From Candidatus Poribacteria bacterium (GTDB lineage: Bacteria; Poribacteria; WGA-4E; WGA-3G), in the NCBI GenBank assembly GCA_965205015.1, contig OZ242029.1:544001-608000 (forward strand): 64,000 bases of DNA, written 5' to 3'. The translations under genes and the position numbers were made by a program. The notes beneath the pieces are model-generated. The model was not told the origin of the DNA and did no database searches. It saw only the letters and a list, made by a program, of their open reading frames with translations. Position 1 is the stretch's first letter, and every line of letters begins with the position of its first letter. Of the stretch, positions 22,595 through 50,845 are shown in pieces.

Positions 22595-22765
22595 CGAATT
22601 ACCTCCAAGAGATCATGAAAAAACAAATTTCCTTTTCCGTCTGAACTCCATTCTAATAGATTTTCGCTTTTGTTTCAAGGGAATAGTCGGTTTTGGAATC
22701 CCAATGCTTTAGCTTTGGGAGGAAAATCCGCCCTCTTGGAAAGGACCAAAACGTTCATTTTTCCC

Positions 22766-22795
22766 TTGACATTTGGTCCGAAAGTGTGTTAGAAT
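22766..22795 (+). promoter_or_regulatory. Sigma70 promoter of tnpB element 1 (TTGACA-18-TAGAAT, extended -10)
   Basis: ttgaca tttggtccgaaagtgtgt tagaat. Confidence 0.65.
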
Positions 22796-22799
22796 TAGA

Positions 22800-22881
22800 G
22801 TATCAGGTTGGCAAGTATTATCAGCGTTACCGCTTGGTAACGTACTTGCCTCCCACTGATAAGGGGATAAACACCTGATAC
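22800..22881 (+). ncRNA. Putative pseudoknotted 5'-leader RNA motif (copy 1)
   Basis: P1 gtatcaggt/acctgatac; P2 ggcaagta/tacttgcc; P3 cgttacc/ggtaacg; P4 tccc/ggga. The bulge ttatcag is complementary to the P4 loop ctgataa. Confidence 0.65.
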
Positions 22882-22891
22882 CTGATATACC

Positions 22892-24121
22892 ATGAAATTA
22901 ACTTTTAAGTATCCTGTGTATCCTACCAGAACACAGGAACAAACAGTGTTAGCGTGGCTTGACCACCTGTGTGACCTTCAGAACTCTGCTCGCCACGATC
23001 GCAAGGTAGCGTTAGAAGTTGAAGATCGTTTCGTCACGCTCTCCGAACAGCAAGACAAGTTAACAGCCGCTCGTGAGAAATATGACGACTTCCGAGAAGT
23101 GCCACAAGATTTCCAAAATCACGCCCTGCGAAGAAACGATAAAGCCTTTACTGCCTTCCGCAAACGTTGTAAAGAAAACGCTGCGAAAAAAGGGTATCCT
23201 CGCTACAAAAAGCGTGTCCGTTCTCTGACGTGGAGCCTTCGCAAATATACGAAAGTGGTTCGTCGAAAGACCAAAGACGCTGAAAAACAGACGCTACGCG
23301 TTCGCGAGAATCCAATCATAGAAACGCCCTTTCGCCATAACCGCTTGAAAGTGCCAAAGTTGGGTGAAGTCAAGATACGCATGCACCGCCCGCTTGAAGG
23401 GGATCCCAAAGAAGTTACGCTCGTGAAAAAAGCAAGTGGCTGGTATGCTCATATTACCTGTGAACTCCCCGATACTCCGAAAGTTGAACCGACAGCTGCG
23501 ATCGCTGTTGACGTTGGCACAACGCACTATCTGACGACTTCCGAAGGCGAAAAGGAAGATAACCCGCGCTGGTATCGCCAAGCAGAAGGACTGCTCCACA
23601 AACATAATCAGACGATGGCCCGCCGTAAAAAAGGGAGCAACCGCTGGTATAAAGCCGTGCATGCCGTTGCCTTGCACCATGAGCGAACTGCTAACAAACG
23701 CAAAGACTTTATCGGTAAACTCGTCTACAAACTTTTTCATCATTGCGGAAAGCACGTCCTCGTTGCGGAGGACTTGCAAACCTCTAACATGGTTCAGAAT
23801 AAGCACCTCAGCAAGAGCATTTCGGATGCGTCTTGGGGTATCTTCTTTCAGTGGTGTGGGAACATAGCCGAAAGAGACGGTTTCCACGTCCACCAAGTGA
23901 ATCCCAAAAACACTTCGCAAACCTGCTCTGCTTGTGGTAAGAAGTCGCCAAAGAAACTCTCTTTAGCGATACGGACCTTTGATTGTAGTTTTTGTGGCAC
24001 TTCGTTAGACCGAGACCACAACGCTGCGATAAACATACTTTTGCGGGCGGCTTGCGCCCATCGTGGAGAGCGTTGGGTTACCAACCTCTGTGAAACGAGA
24101 AACTTACCGGTAGACCGGTAG
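22892..24121 (+). CDS. tnpB: RNA-guided endonuclease TnpB (InsQ family)
   Basis: RuvC residues intact: 'AVDVG', 'VAEDL', 'DRDHNAAINI'. Zn ribbon CSAC...CSFC. Confidence 0.95.
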   Translation: MKLTFKYPVYPTRTQEQTVLAWLDHLCDLQNSARHDRKVALEVEDRFVTLSEQQDKLTAAREKYDDFREVPQDFQNHALRRNDKAFTAFRKRCKENAAKKGYPRYKKRVRSLTWSLRKYTKVVRRKTKDAEKQTLRVRENPIIETPFRHNRLKVPKLGEVKIRMHRPLEGDPKEVTLVKKASGWYAHITCELPDTPKVEPTAAIAVDVGTTHYLTTSEGEKEDNPRWYRQAEGLLHKHNQTMARRKKGSNRWYKAVHAVALHHERTANKRKDFIGKLVYKLFHHCGKHVLVAEDLQTSNMVQNKHLSKSISDASWGIFFQWCGNIAERDGFHVHQVNPKNTSQTCSACGKKSPKKLSLAIRTFDCSFCGTSLDRDHNAAINILLRAACAHRGERWVTNLCETRNLPVDR

Positions 24122-24316: not shown

Positions 24317-24895
24317 ATGGAAATCCCAAGTATTGTTATTATCGGTGATGATTCACAGGCAGGTACCTATATCTTGCGAATCCGCCTTAAAGAGAAGACC
24401 GCATTAAAATTTGGGAGATTCAAGAAAGGGAAACTTATTTCATTACCCGCTGGTGATTACCTTTACATCGGCTCTGCACTCTCGGAGAAGGGAGCCATTT
24501 CGTTAGCACGGCGGCTGATCCGGCACGCAACACGGCGTAACCCTCAGCCACCACATCCTATCCGAGAAAAAATGATAGACCGATTCAGTGAATGCGGTTT
24601 GGGACCTCGCGACCTATTACCAAAACGTGGTAAAACCCTACACTGGAACGTTGATTTCCTCTTGGATCTGCCATCGGCGGAGCTCGTCGCTATCCTTGCT
24701 ATCCGTTCCGCTGAACGCTTGGAGAAGAGTCTTGCCAAGCGACTTGAACAGGATCCACGCACGGAGATTATCGAACCCGGGTTAGGTGCAAACGATGCTC
24801 CAGGTAACACACACCTGTTACGCATCCGATCAGATAGCATGGGGTGGGCATCTCTCACAGACAAAGTAAGAGGGATTCTGAAAGAAACACCTTAG
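24317..24895 (+). CDS. GIY-YIG (Uri superfamily, DUF123) nuclease-family protein
   Basis: 'GTYILRIRL', 'GDYLYIGSA', 'RRLIRH', 'LHWNVDFLL'. Confidence 0.8.
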   Translation: MEIPSIVIIGDDSQAGTYILRIRLKEKTALKFGRFKKGKLISLPAGDYLYIGSALSEKGAISLARRLIRHATRRNPQPPHPIREKMIDRFSECGLGPRDLLPKRGKTLHWNVDFLLDLPSAELVAILAIRSAERLEKSLAKRLEQDPRTEIIEPGLGANDAPGNTHLLRIRSDSMGWASLTDKVRGILKETP

Positions 24896-26901: not shown

Positions 26902-28368
26902 ATGGCACGACAACCCAATATTCTTTTTCTTCTCACCGACCAGCAACGTTTCGATTCACTCGGTTGCAACGGAGCACCCATTTGCCGAACGCCTGCTATC
27001 GATGAAATTGCCGCAACAGGTATGCGGTTCACCAATGCCTATACTCCTATCGCGCTCTGTTCACCGGCGCGCGGGTCTCTACTCACCGGACTTTACCCCC
27101 ACAATCACGGACAGTTGTCAAACATGGGCAATTTCAACGCTGTGTTTGCAAACCAGATCCTCGACAAACCGGCGTATCCTAAACTTCTTGACGAGGCAGG
27201 CTATCGGGTCAGCTGCATCGGTAAGTGGCATCTTGCGAAGGAAGGCGACACGGAGTTTTGGGGTTACGATAAGTGGCATCCGTATCGCGAGTGGCACCAG
27301 TGGCTCCGCGAGGACGGGATTGACTTCCGAATTGATAGGGATGCCGTCCAACCGTATGAGTGGGGCGGTGAGGCACCTTTCTACGGAAGACACCCACTCC
27401 CCGCTGAACGGACAATGGAAGCGTGGACCGCAGACAAAACGATTGAACTCATCAACGGCTACTCCGATGCCGAACACCCTTTTATGATCGCTGCGAATTT
27501 CTTTGGACCGCACTTTCCTTACGCAGTGCCAGCACCTTACGACACGATGTATGATCCCGACACTGCCGAACGGTGGGGCAACTTTGACGAGCAATTCATC
27601 AACAAACCCCTCATCCAGCAGAAGGAGATGCTCCGGTGGAACGCCAGTCACTTGACATGGCCCGATTGGCAGAAGGTCATTGCGGCTTACTGGGGATTCT
27701 GCACCTTCATTGACGATCAGGTGCGGCGAATTCTCGACTGCCTTGAGGCGAACGGTTTGACGGAAAACACCGTCATTATCTTCTCAACCGACCACGGCGA
27801 TATGCTCGGCAGCCATCGGCTTTTCAATAAGGGGTTCCACATGTACGAAGAGACGCACCACATTCCGCTCGTCATCCGGTGTCCCGGCGCAACATCACCC
27901 GGAACGACGTGTGATGAATTCGTGAATCTTGTGGATCTCATGCCGACGTTTTTGGAACTCGGGGGTGCAAAGATGCCCGAACGTCTTAATATCGGCTCGC
28001 AAGCTTCACCGGGGCTTGACGGTAGATCGATTGTGCCTCTGTTGCGAGGAGAAAATGTGGAGGATTGGCCCGATGATGTGTTCGCCGAATTCCATGGATA
28101 CGAACCGACGCTTGCTTCTGTCAGGATGGTACGGACGGATTCGTGGAAATACGTCTATAACCCATACAGCGAGGACGAACTCTACGATATGAAGAGCGAT
28201 CCTCACGAACTCCATAACGTGGCGAACCATCTCGGTTACAAACATGTACTCCGACGTATGAAAGAGCGCATGGTCGATCGTCTACGCGAAACGAGGGACA
28301 ACATCGTTATGGAAGGCGGATGGCAGAGCAATTCGTTCGACCTGCTCGTCTCAGAACGGGAGCGGTAG
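26902..28368 (+). CDS. Sulfatase (Cys-type formylglycine-dependent, S1 family)
   Basis: 'PNILFLLTDQQR', 'CSPARGSLLTG', 'GKWHL', 'TDHGDMLGSH', 'ELYD...DPHEL.N'. Confidence 0.95.
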   Translation: MARQPNILFLLTDQQRFDSLGCNGAPICRTPAIDEIAATGMRFTNAYTPIALCSPARGSLLTGLYPHNHGQLSNMGNFNAVFANQILDKPAYPKLLDEAGYRVSCIGKWHLAKEGDTEFWGYDKWHPYREWHQWLREDGIDFRIDRDAVQPYEWGGEAPFYGRHPLPAERTMEAWTADKTIELINGYSDAEHPFMIAANFFGPHFPYAVPAPYDTMYDPDTAERWGNFDEQFINKPLIQQKEMLRWNASHLTWPDWQKVIAAYWGFCTFIDDQVRRILDCLEANGLTENTVIIFSTDHGDMLGSHRLFNKGFHMYEETHHIPLVIRCPGATSPGTTCDEFVNLVDLMPTFLELGGAKMPERLNIGSQASPGLDGRSIVPLLRGENVEDWPDDVFAEFHGYEPTLASVRMVRTDSWKYVYNPYSEDELYDMKSDPHELHNVANHLGYKHVLRRMKERMVDRLRETRDNIVMEGGWQSNSFDLLVSERER

Positions 28369-28530
28369 CACCTTGTGATACTACCCAACGCCTAAAGGCG
28401 TGGGCTTCGGTTTCATAGCGATTGCGGTTTTCGCTCAAGCGTCCACCGTCTTACTATCGCTCCACCAGCAGGCTCTTATTCCGAATCAGATCGGTTTTAT
28501 CTGGCTTAGGTCCAGGGTACCCCAGCCCGC
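28355..28530 (-). ncRNA. Predicted omegaRNA of tnpB element 2 (boundaries approximate)
   Basis: About 155 nt from the tnpB 3' end to the RE are conserved with 50383-50540. The guide would be aaggtgctaccgctcccg. Confidence 0.65.
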
Positions 28531-29682
28531 AAAATGTTTATCGCAGCGTTTATATCTCTGTCGTGGTGTGAACCACAGTCAGAACACGTCCACTCCCTAT
28601 CTGAAAGTGTTAGGGTTTTGTTGTGATAGCCACAATCCGAACAGGGTTTTGTTGTGGCTTCCCAACGTCCCGCTTTCAATAACGTTTTACCATATTTGGC
28701 ACATGTCCATTGGAGGATCCATGAGAACTCACCAAAAGCAAGGTCAGAGATTTTTCGTCCCCACAGGCGTTTCATACCCGATAGGTTCAGCGTCTCAATC
28801 GCAATCTTATCGTATCTACGCACAAGGCGGAGTGCCAACTTGAAAAACCAATCTCGTCTTCTATTGGCTATATCCTTATTGACGCGTGCGAGGTGTCGTT
28901 TGGCACGAAACCAGCCATTAGAAAGATACTGCTTACGAGAGAGTGTCTTGTTTGCGGAACAAATTTCATTGAGACTTTGCTTGAAAAACTCTGGTGAGGC
29001 TATCTTGATACCGTCTGAAAGGGTCAGAAACGTCTTCATACCGAAGTCTGCCCCTGCCGCATTACTGGTCAGTGGGAGTTTTTCGGCGGGTTCTGAACCT
29101 TCACAACTGAGATACAAGTGATAGTCGCCCACAGGATCACGCTTGATTGTTACCGTCTTTATCGTTCCAGTCCATTCACGGTGTTTCCAAAACGTGAACG
29201 ACTTCTTCAGACACTTGATATGAATGCGATTGTCTTTTATCTCATAACCTGCTTGCGTGAACGTCAATGAGTTATACTTGTGTTGTGGCTTTATCTGTGG
29301 CTTGCCGACTTTACGCGGTGATAATCCTTTCTTTTTAGCATCAAGATAGTCAAAGAACTTTTCATAGCCGAGATGGATACGCTTGGCAACCTGTTGTATA
29401 ACTTGGCTCGGTAGTTGTTTCCAATGCGGTTTCGTCCGACGCTTTAACTTCGTTATATGCGAGCAGATACGCCCAAAGGACGCATACTTGCCATAGATAC
29501 GATAATAGCGTCTCTGCAATAAAAGCAAGTGGACATGCACGCCATGCAAGTCGTCAAGCAGATTCCCCATCTGTATGAGATTCGACTGATGATAAAACTC
29601 ATATTTTTCAGTTTTCATGGATTCCCACGTATCACGCCTTTTACCCCAGCTAAAGCATTGGGACCTGACGCCCGAAGTCCCG
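28375..29682 (-). mobile_element. IS200/IS605-family (tnpA-less) element 2
   Basis: On the minus strand: TTTA|cg...AGGT-cccaatgctttagctgggg (LE), tnpB, then GAAG-cccacgcctttaggcgttggg-tagtaTCAC (RE). Ends are shared with the 50383-50827 mini-element. Confidence 0.82.
28506..29618 (-). CDS. tnpB: RNA-guided endonuclease TnpB
   Basis: RuvC 'GADFG', 'IAIETL', 'DRDINAAINI'. Zn ribbon CSDC...CSDC. Confidence 0.95.
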   Translation of the reverse strand: MKTEKYEFYHQSNLIQMGNLLDDLHGVHVHLLLLQRRYYRIYGKYASFGRICSHITKLKRRTKPHWKQLPSQVIQQVAKRIHLGYEKFFDYLDAKKKGLSPRKVGKPQIKPQHKYNSLTFTQAGYEIKDNRIHIKCLKKSFTFWKHREWTGTIKTVTIKRDPVGDYHLYLSCEGSEPAEKLPLTSNAAGADFGMKTFLTLSDGIKIASPEFFKQSLNEICSANKTLSRKQYLSNGWFRAKRHLARVNKDIANRRRDWFFKLALRLVRRYDKIAIETLNLSGMKRLWGRKISDLAFGEFSWILQWTCAKYGKTLLKAGRWEATTKPCSDCGYHNKTLTLSDREWTCSDCGSHHDRDINAAINILRAGVPWT

Positions 29683-50362: not shown

Positions 50363-50540
50363 CAACGTTCACTAATAGACTTGTGATACTACCCAACGCC
50401 TAAAGGCGTGGGCTTCGGTTTCATAGCAACTGCGTTCTTCCGAAAGGGTTGAACGTCTTATTATCGCTCCACCCGTAGGCTCTTATTCCGAATCAGATCG
50501 GCTTTATCTGGTTTATGCCCAGGGTACCCCAGCCTACAAA
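50363..50540 (-). ncRNA. Orphan omegaRNA scaffold plus flanking guide (predicted)
   Basis: Homologous to the tnpB2 3' end and RE. The tnpB relic reads ttgTAGgctggggtaccctgggcaTAA. The guide would be aagtctattagtgaacgttg. Confidence 0.62.
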
Positions 50541-50641
50541 GAATGAATGAGAGGGTACCGATACAAGGCGTTGGGTCATTACGCCACAATCGACTTACAG
50601 GAACGATACCCGAAATGTATTTTAGAGTGATTGCGCACTTC

Positions 50642-50716
50642 GCACTCTATGCCCTTCTCACGGGGCGGTTAGGACTCTGCCAGAGATTGGCAGAGGTGAG
50701 AACCCTAACCAAGTGC
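50642..50716 (-). ncRNA. Putative pseudoknotted RNA motif (copy 2)
   Basis: P1 gcactt/gagtgc; P2 ggttaggg/tcctaacc; P3 ctctgcca/tggcagag; P4 gccc/gggc. The bulge ttctcac is complementary to the P4 loop gtgagaa. Confidence 0.65.
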
Positions 50717-50723
50717 TGATACA

Positions 50724-50752
50724 AGTATACTACAATTTACTGTGAATGTCAA
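50724..50752 (-). promoter_or_regulatory. Near-consensus sigma70 promoter inside the mini-element
   Basis: Minus strand ttgaca ttcacagtaaattgtag tatact (17-nt spacer). Confidence 0.75.
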
Positions 50753-50845
50753 GTTTATTTTTGATTTTCAACGATTAACGATATTAGACCCAACGCTAAA
50801 GCATTGGGACCTGTTAAGGGAGGATCGTAAAAACTAAAATGATCT

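Follow-up and report, generated by a model that had tools for sequence, protein, structure and literature searches.

A covarying, pseudoknotted RNA module at the predicted 5' end of tnpB element transcripts in Candidatus Poribacteria

The window, the whole 64,000-nt stretch of Candidatus Poribacteria DNA analysed here, carries two tnpB genes, tnpB1 and tnpB2, and a mini-element without a gene (Table 1). TnpB1 and TnpB2 are only 30% identical. Relatives of TnpB1 are overwhelmingly from metagenome-assembled genomes of Candidatus Poribacteria, the best with 99% amino-acid identity. A pattern search for the left-end hairpin gave 5 matches at 3 sites, compared with 0.01 expected, and in relatives this hairpin likewise stands upstream of the RNA module described below. 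The label "mini-element", given in the original prediction, was borne out: the 3' 155 nt show ~90% mean column identity with the 3' end of tnpB2 and its right end (28367-28545, minus strand), and the identity ends after ...tatcacaag. A DUF123 ORF (24317-24895) lies after element 1.

Table 1. Features of the two tnpB elements and the mini-element (window coordinates; components of each module copy are listed singly)
Feature	Position	Strand	Remark
Left-end subterminal hairpin of tnpB element 1, cccaatgctttagctttggg	22700-22719	+	
Sigma70-type promoter TTGACA-18-TAGAAT, TG before -10 box	22766-22795	+	11/12 matches; conserved in relatives
Module copy 1	22800-22888	+	P1 through r2; ahead of tnpB1
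Copy 1 P1 5' strand, gtatcaggt	22800-22808	+	starts at predicted transcript start
Copy 1 long arm P2-bulge-P3, overall	22810-22850	+	
Copy 1 P2	22810-22817 with 22843-22850	+	RNAfold; compensatory changes
Copy 1 bulge ttatcag, pseudoknot 5' strand	22818-22824	+	
Copy 1 P3 hairpin	22825-22842	+	RNAfold; compensatory changes
Copy 1 P4 hairpin	22851-22866 (22851-22854 with 22863-22866)	+	
Copy 1 P4 loop segment ctgataa, pseudoknot 3' strand	22856-22862	+	exact complement of bulge
Copy 1 J4/1, A-rich, ataaac	22867-22872	+	
Copy 1 tandem P1 3' strands	r1 22873-22881; r2 22880-22888	+	each complementary to P1 5' strand
tnpB1, 409 aa	22892-24121	+	ATG at 22892; Pfam OrfB_IS605 and Cas12f1-like_TNB
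tnpB2 element, 370-aa TnpB, intact ORF 28506-29618	28506-29662	-	left-end hairpin 29643-29662 kept
Left-end hairpin of gene-less mini-element	50789-50808	-	pattern search
Mini-element promoter TTGACA-17-TATACT	50724-50752	-	11/12 matches
Module copy 2	50635-50717	-	P1 through r2; in gene-less mini-element
Copy 2 P1 5' strand	50716-50711	-	
Copy 2 P2	50710-50703 with 50674-50667	-	
Copy 2 bulge ttctcac	50702-50696	-	
Copy 2 P3	50695-50675	-	
Copy 2 P4	50666-50651	-	loop gtgagaa at 50661-50655
Copy 2 tandem P1 3' strands	r1 50647-50642; r2 50640-50635	-	
omegaRNA scaffold and right end of mini-element	50380-50535	-	homologous to tnpB2 3' end

The module is ~85 nt in size. Its P1 helix closes a three-way junction with two arms. 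The first arm consists of P2, a 7-nt bulge and P3, and the second is a 4-bp P4 hairpin, whose loop pairs with the bulge to form a 7-bp pseudoknot. That both window copies share this pseudoknotted architecture, as predicted, was confirmed base for base by reading the two sites and by RNAfold, which recovered P1-P4 in each of them. RNAfold gave copy 1 a free energy of -40.2 kcal/mol (z -6.68; 0/200 dinucleotide shuffles were equally stable) and copy 2 one of -36.2 kcal/mol (z -3.66; 1/200 shuffles). The P4 loop and the bulge are complementary at 7/7 positions in both copies. The 3' strand of P1 is duplicated in both copies, giving the tandem strands r1 and r2; this duplication is kept in relatives.

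The architecture is common to three sequence-divergent clades. Clade A is the tnpB1 type, clade B is found upstream of TnpBs ~40% identical to TnpB1, and clade C is the type of window copy 2. Nearly all relatives in Poribacteria have the same promoter and fold within their upstream 230 nt. The original prediction had called for a covariance-model search of related genomes; this was run with models built from relatives, and many homologues were found. The clade-A model (R1) missed copy 2 with default filters and found it at 32.8 bits with filters off. In the window, the cross-clade model (R2) finds module copies 1 and 2 and no others, with scores of 98.1 and 71.1 bits (E 2e-16 for copy 2). In each of five genomes of Poribacteria, which are sponge symbionts, it has at least 29-76 matches, from 150 candidates scored per genome. 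At E<=1e-5, it has matches in 85 of 120 sampled Poribacteria genomes, and at least 1278 matches in total, from at most 33 scored candidates in each genome. R2 had no match in 19 TnpB loci from other phyla (among 38 loci searched) or in 5 whole non-Poribacteria genomes carrying TnpB relatives. In IMG/VR viral contigs, the clade-A P4/pseudoknot pattern matches only 1 contig. The abundance of matches and the covariation of every helix, described below, uphold the claim of a conserved 5' RNA module of these transposons.

A cmscan of the whole window against all families of Rfam 15 gave 0 matches at gathering score. At E<=10, the two copies had chance-level matches only, unrelated to the module. 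In 20 related loci, Rfam had nothing at the module; a T-box and a group II intron were the only matches and lie elsewhere. The T-box leader adjoins one TnpB element (L003, 2981-3273), and the group II intron domain adjoins another (L025, 1138-1214). A tRNA-like reading was rejected, as ARAGORN found 0 genes in the window. RF03038 was considered as a Poribacteria-named motif and rejected, because it is nhaA-II. In the portions of the literature covered, we found no description of a 5' module of TnpB elements or of a Poribacteria-named or IS605-orfB RNA motif. The main text of a 2017 motif survey (PMC5737381) names neither Poribacteria nor IS605; its supplements may list a Poribacteria-named motif. 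The module is an undescribed RNA family of a known general kind, namely the structured 5' leaders of insertion sequences and mRNAs. Its unusual traits are a pseudoknot that is hypervariable but always compensated, and a closing helix with two registers that is conserved.

Covariation, which had been named among the checks, was found in all helices, including the pseudoknot. In a plain, structure-agnostic MAFFT alignment of 27 clade-A relatives (A2), 94.7% of cells are paired, compared with 82.3 +/- 0.7 in shuffles (0/500 reach it), and pairing falls to <=45.9% when partners are slid by 1-3 columns. Both sides have changed in 15/35 pairs, and the four central pseudoknot pairs carry three or four Watson-Crick types each. 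When P1 is closed by r2 instead, the helix is 93.1% paired. Two variable P1 positions covary with both r1 and r2, and in the r2-closed helix they are compensated in 9 and 12 sequences. R1, which was built from A2, yielded 61 aligned matches, 54 of them unique. In 47 of these 54, bulge and loop are complementary at 7/7 positions, and the 54 contain 28 distinct pseudoknot 7-mers. P1 is 8/8 paired with r1 in 36/54 and with r2 in 38/54. The helices of the 54 sequences contain 129 G-U pairs as against 21 A-C oppositions, and the pseudoknot shows G-U intermediates. The folded strand is therefore the sense strand, which agrees with the earlier remark that the G-U pairs of copy 2 fit the transcribed strand only. 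Across clades, 23 sequences were aligned by R1 with filters off (A4). Nested helices in A4 were fitted to the model, and 95.2% of all cells are paired, compared with 64.4% when shuffled, with 32/35 pairs altered on both sides; the pseudoknot, which is outside the model, is 93.5% paired, with 6/7 pairs altered on both sides. The module is thus firmly established as a conserved structured sense-strand element at the predicted 5' end, and its architecture is kept over deep sequence divergence.

The position of the module relative to the promoter is also conserved. A sigma70-type promoter stands directly before each window copy, as had been claimed (Table 1). The -10 hexamers end 4 nt (copy 1) and 7 nt (copy 2) before P1, and P1 starts 3-7 nt downstream of the -10 hexamer in all three clades. 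From this spacing, +1 is predicted on the first P1 bases (copy 1, ~22800-22802), and we infer that transcription starts at P1. Lying 5' of tnpB and downstream of an internal promoter, the module is distinct from the 3' omegaRNA, the scaffolds and right ends of which are located at 50380-50535 and 28372-28540; this too had been predicted. Family-like contigs that include the module region occur in four sponge and coral metatranscriptome assemblies, in which DNA carry-over is possible; they weigh on neither side. A dip in contig depth at 22771-22827 corresponds to the hypervariable stems, which are below the likeness cut-off. Around the -35 hexamer of element 1, there is an 8-bp inverted repeat, ggaccaaa / tttggtcc (22743-22750 and 22772-22779, plus strand). 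Matched variants (agaccaaa / tttggtct) are present in some relatives and the repeat is absent in others. It could be an operator, or it could fold as a hairpin, either in read-through transcripts or in single-stranded DNA.

Transposition of IS200/IS605 elements proceeds as single-stranded DNA, which favours the reading that the fold acts not as RNA but in the single-stranded top strand of the transposon while it is excised, integrated or replicated. RNA and top strand are identical in sequence, so covariation and a G-T bias fit DNA equally. However, P1 is tied to the +1 position of the promoter in three clades, GNRA-type GCAA loops cap P3 in 13/54 sequences, and elements that have lost the module have spread. 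In the window, tnpB2 lacks promoter and module. By a deletion, its left-end hairpin is fused, at the 3' arm, to the 3' strand of P4, and a remnant, 'taaaag gcgtgat acgtg' (29643-29626), which corresponds to J4/1, r1 and r2 by comparison with L023-type modules, is found directly before the ATG at 29618. Three differently flanked loci of one genome (L044, L047, L056) share an identical deletion that runs from the -10 box through the module as far as the ATG, and in L040 and L042 a different internal deletion removed P2-P4. The spread of the module-less copies (L044, L047 and L056; tnpB2) indicates that the module is dispensable and not needed in cis for mobility. A role in single-stranded DNA is thus highly improbable. 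Interrupted modules were also observed: L069 (~1320-1500) has an ~85-nt insertion in J4/1, and several copies in genome G005 (matches 128-131 nt long) have a ~25-nt insertion.

Across 22 cross-clade sequences, invariant columns number 4/140, and none is in a junction. This means that shape rather than sequence is conserved, which fits a steric or stability role. Inside clade A, the junction is well conserved, and J4/1 is ATAAAC, ATAAAT, ATAAAA or TTAAAG in 49/54 sequences. Between clades, J4/1 differs; it has 6 nt (AUAAAC-like) in A and 2-4 nt in C, and is AAUGAAAG-like in B. In all three clades, the 3' strand occurs in tandem and matches the 5' strand, and the covariation of r1 and r2 with the latter extends to clade B. 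In clade B, J4/1 holds a conserved AUG (..AUGAAAG..; e.g., L123, L145, L149-L153, L160). It is in frame in one TnpB subfamily, where it would add 7 residues (MKGKDDS-), and in other subfamilies it opens a short upstream ORF of ~13-14 codons overlapping the tnpB start. Four or five tandem copies of the P1 5' strand unit GTCTTTC are present in L161 of genome G003 (~300-345 of the oriented locus), so slippage strikes the 5' strand too. Despite this, exactly two 3' repeats are found in nearly all copies.

This variability bears on two kinds of function. Ribozymes are known at the 5' ends of retroelements, and a compact pseudoknotted junction heading a mobile-element transcript would suit a self-cleaving ribozyme, one of the four functions originally listed, or a nuclease-processing signal that parts the leader from the mRNA/omegaRNA, for example between r1 and r2. 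One near-identical RNA-library contig does begin at 22868, although an assembly that broke at a repeat is the most likely cause. An invariant catalytic core like those of the hammerhead, twister, pistol, hatchet and HDV-like ribozymes is not seen in the few invariant columns, and no junction nucleotide is invariant across clades. There was no ribozyme family match at E<=10 and no relevant Rfam match in the 20 loci. In addition, the promoter abuts P1, and hence there is no upstream RNA to remove. These points argue against the proposal, and cleavage is hardly to be expected. The second function is ligand sensing. The purine and THF-I riboswitches are three-way-junction aptamers held by a distal tertiary contact. 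The module resembles them in its P1-closed junction, in its two arms tied by a loop contact, and in an alternative P1 pairing that could serve as an expression platform; the mutually exclusive pairing is present, as r1 and r2 both covary with the 5' strand. Unlike these riboswitches, it has no core conserved between clades that could bind a ligand, no metabolic gene and no Rfam match. The statement that it is not a recognised riboswitch class is consistent with this.

The module is closely linked to the start codon of tnpB. As had been noticed, tnpB1 has no obvious Shine-Dalgarno (SD) sequence: no SD-like tetramer lies upstream, compared with its presence, by a loose motif, in 16/26 examined window ORFs. 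The ATG follows r2 by 4 nt in 50/54 sequences, and the spacing in tnpB1 is likewise 4 nt. Of a further 30 matches to the clade-A model, 27 lead into an ORF of >=365 aa that opens at the ATG of the model; these ORFs are of four N-terminal types. Three more N-terminal types are found downstream of clade-B modules. Across clades, at least seven TnpB N-terminal types with SD-less starts follow the module, and Pfam confirmed that six of them are TnpB. At other loci, clade-A cassettes (99-111 bits with R1) stand before genes of the TnpB2 type. Near-identical clade-A cassettes thus precede TnpBs that are 30% identical, and the cassette of promoter and module is therefore portable. A divergent, partly decayed module with promoter in L084 (1490-1930; 44 bits with R1, pseudoknot ~6/8) precedes a GIY-YIG-domain ORF instead of tnpB, and the locus adjoins a 306-aa ORF, by sequence a putative tyrosine recombinase.

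The link to the start codon raises the question of a two-state translational switch that sets the amount of TnpB. Pairing of the P1 5' strand with r1 would be the ON state, leaving an 11-nt open leader and a free AUG, and pairing with r2 would be the OFF state, in which the helix ends 4 nt short of the AUG. The balance would be set by a factor bound at the junction, such as a ligand or TnpB itself. The covariation of r1 and r2 with the 5' strand, the missing SD, the constant r2-ATG spacing and the conserved clade-A junction are all in favour of it. Furthermore, the two registers are near in energy. By nearest-neighbour energies that ignore the pseudoknot, the mean gap is 2.3 kcal/mol, and r1 is the better register in 47/53. 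However, the associated gene belongs to a transposon and is not metabolic. The junctions differ between clades, with none of the four invariant columns in them, and a shared ligand pocket is therefore unlikely. The module with r1 and r2 is also maintained where there is no ATG, as described next. We consider such a switch rather unlikely.

Copies of this kind are found in clade C. All 8 clade-C copies in genome G005, and the window copy, are gene-less (best ORF <=80 aa); both 3' strands are kept in them, except in L115, which has a single 3' repeat. Downstream of the module, the G005 copies have a second folded stretch, after which comes an omegaRNA-like scaffold. In 7 aligned clade-C copies (the window copy and 6/8 of G005), there are four pseudoknot variants, all 7/7 complementary, and compensatory changes are also found in P3 and P4. 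Selection thus acts on the fold even where there is no translation. Because the module heads gene-less mini-elements, it is not a purely translational device. Two mini copies belong to clade B (L141, L162). The second folded stretch lies between the module and the omegaRNA scaffold, at 50525-50634 (minus strand) in the window, and also in L111-L122. It is closed by the stem GGGTATC/GGTACCC in the window copy and by GGGCAGC/GCTGCCC in the copies of G005. Compensatory changes are seen in 5/15 of its predicted pairs, and tnpB2 has no counterpart at the matching position.

The gene-less copies shift the balance among the four functions listed in the original prediction: a transcript cap or stabiliser, or a protein platform, is favoured over a purely translational switch. 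As a protein-binding or RNP-assembly platform, the module would recruit, by its shape, a host factor or TnpB to the nascent transcript, serving either processing and loading of omegaRNA or autoregulation. Its architecture is constant while its sequence varies, and module and omegaRNA are on the same transcript in full-length and mini elements, both of which favour a platform. TnpB reportedly acts on its own mRNA, processing it into omegaRNA, according to the part of that study covered here (PMC10278001), which also counts in favour. On the other hand, the same clade-A sequence type serves TnpBs that are only 30% identical, which makes a site specific to TnpB unlikely and would call for a host factor. 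In full-length elements, ~1.2 kb separate the module from the omegaRNA scaffold. In addition, the rest of the element shows no recurrence of pseudoknot or P1 words beyond chance: pseudoknot words had 12 matches elsewhere in the 54 elements, compared with ~13 expected by chance, and P1 words had 4. The idea that the pseudoknot encodes a TAM, a target or an omegaRNA contact was rejected because of this chance-level recurrence. A platform is an unlikely reading on this evidence.

We tentatively prefer, as a real possibility that still falls short of probable, a portable 5'-terminal fold that protects and insulates the tnpB mRNA/omegaRNA precursor. A role at the level of the transcript is favoured because the module is kept in non-coding mini-elements, its shape and not its sequence is conserved, and it is portable across TnpB types. 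It would be a cis-acting 5'-terminal RNA domain on the single rightward transcript of IS200/IS605-family tnpB-only elements. When the near-consensus sigma70 promoter fires, the first transcribed bases would be the P1 5' strand. The next ~85 nt would fold into the three-way junction, with the P2-bulge-P3 and P4 arms tied side by side by the pseudoknot. This compact fold would bury the triphosphate 5' end and thereby protect and insulate the transcript, which serves both as tnpB mRNA and as precursor of the 3' omegaRNA or, in mini-elements, as omegaRNA precursor alone. The tandem P1 3' strands would keep the 5' end paired in either of two registers. The downstream register, r2, would stop 4 nt from the SD-less AUG, so that it may also damp tnpB translation. 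Both stabilisation and any effect on translation are what we infer from sequence comparison.

Some observations stand against a stabiliser. A simple hairpin would be enough for 5' protection, and a partner of greater specificity is suggested by a pseudoknotted junction that has kept its shape in at least three clades. Stabilisation alone does not account for the duplication of the 3' strand. The constant ATG spacing (50/54) points to a translational role in full-length elements. A more far-reaching reading, which we regard as speculative and improbable, is that a bistable 5' domain is a second functional RNA of TnpB/OMEGA systems, in which the register would decide between tnpB translation and a silent, stable omegaRNA precursor. 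Such a fate-deciding domain would explain why guide-only mini-elements keep the module under selection.

The putative stabiliser can be compared with known systems. The ompA 5' UTR-type stabilisers are 5'-terminal stem-loops of bacterial mRNAs. As in these, the helix would take in the first nucleotides of the predicted transcript and leave no single-stranded 5' end, and it would act in cis and is movable between genes. Unlike an ompA-type hairpin, the module is an ~85-nt pseudoknotted three-way junction with a duplicated 3' strand and is borne by a transposon, and its stabilising effect is putative. In IS200, a simple stem-loop hides the SD of tnpA and limits expression of the protein of the element. 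The module is similar to the 5' UTR and left-end hairpins of IS200 in belonging to the same superfamily and in being a structured RNA between left end and gene. However, the gene here is tnpB, there is no SD, the AUG is outside the main fold, and the module also heads non-coding mini-elements. As for occlusion of the IS200 type, there is no SD to be covered and the r2 helix stops 4 nt before the AUG, yet r1 is the favoured register (47/53).

The module also shares with the omegaRNAs of TnpB and with HEARO that it is a structured pseudoknotted RNA of OMEGA transposons. The TnpB omegaRNA (reRNA) is located at the tnpB 3' end and right end, and a guide from flanking DNA comes after it. HEARO, the omegaRNA of IscB/IsrB, has 200-300 nt, lies 5' of iscB/isrB and has its guide at the left-end side. 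In contrast to the TnpB omegaRNA, the module is 5' of tnpB, inside the element after its own promoter, and has no guide. In contrast to HEARO, the downstream genes encode TnpB (OrfB_IS605 and TNB), and there is no HEARO or IS605-orfB match in Rfam. A CdISt1-type IStron (IS607/IS605 with tnpB) has a 5' group I intron that shares a transcript with the guide RNA, as described in the part of the report consulted (10.1101/2023.11.20.567912). As far as that part goes, the module is like the IStron in being a structured RNA in the 5' part of a tnpB transposon, on the guide RNA transcript, and is unlike it in being an order of magnitude smaller, in having its own promoter, and in having no intron core or Rfam intron match.

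Cas12 descends from TnpB, which is also a compact tool for genome editing. To our knowledge, the natural control of TnpB and guide-RNA production is still little known. The module is an abundant fold with unusually clean covariation, coupled to a promoter, to an SD-less start codon and, in mini-elements, to a guide-RNA scaffold. It offers a new RNA family for Rfam, and its natural series of mutants and rescues is a test case for the pseudoknot and the two-register helix. It is also a candidate portable cassette for expression or stability. If it is true that the module partitions the transcript between message and guide, this would add an extra regulatory layer to OMEGA systems.
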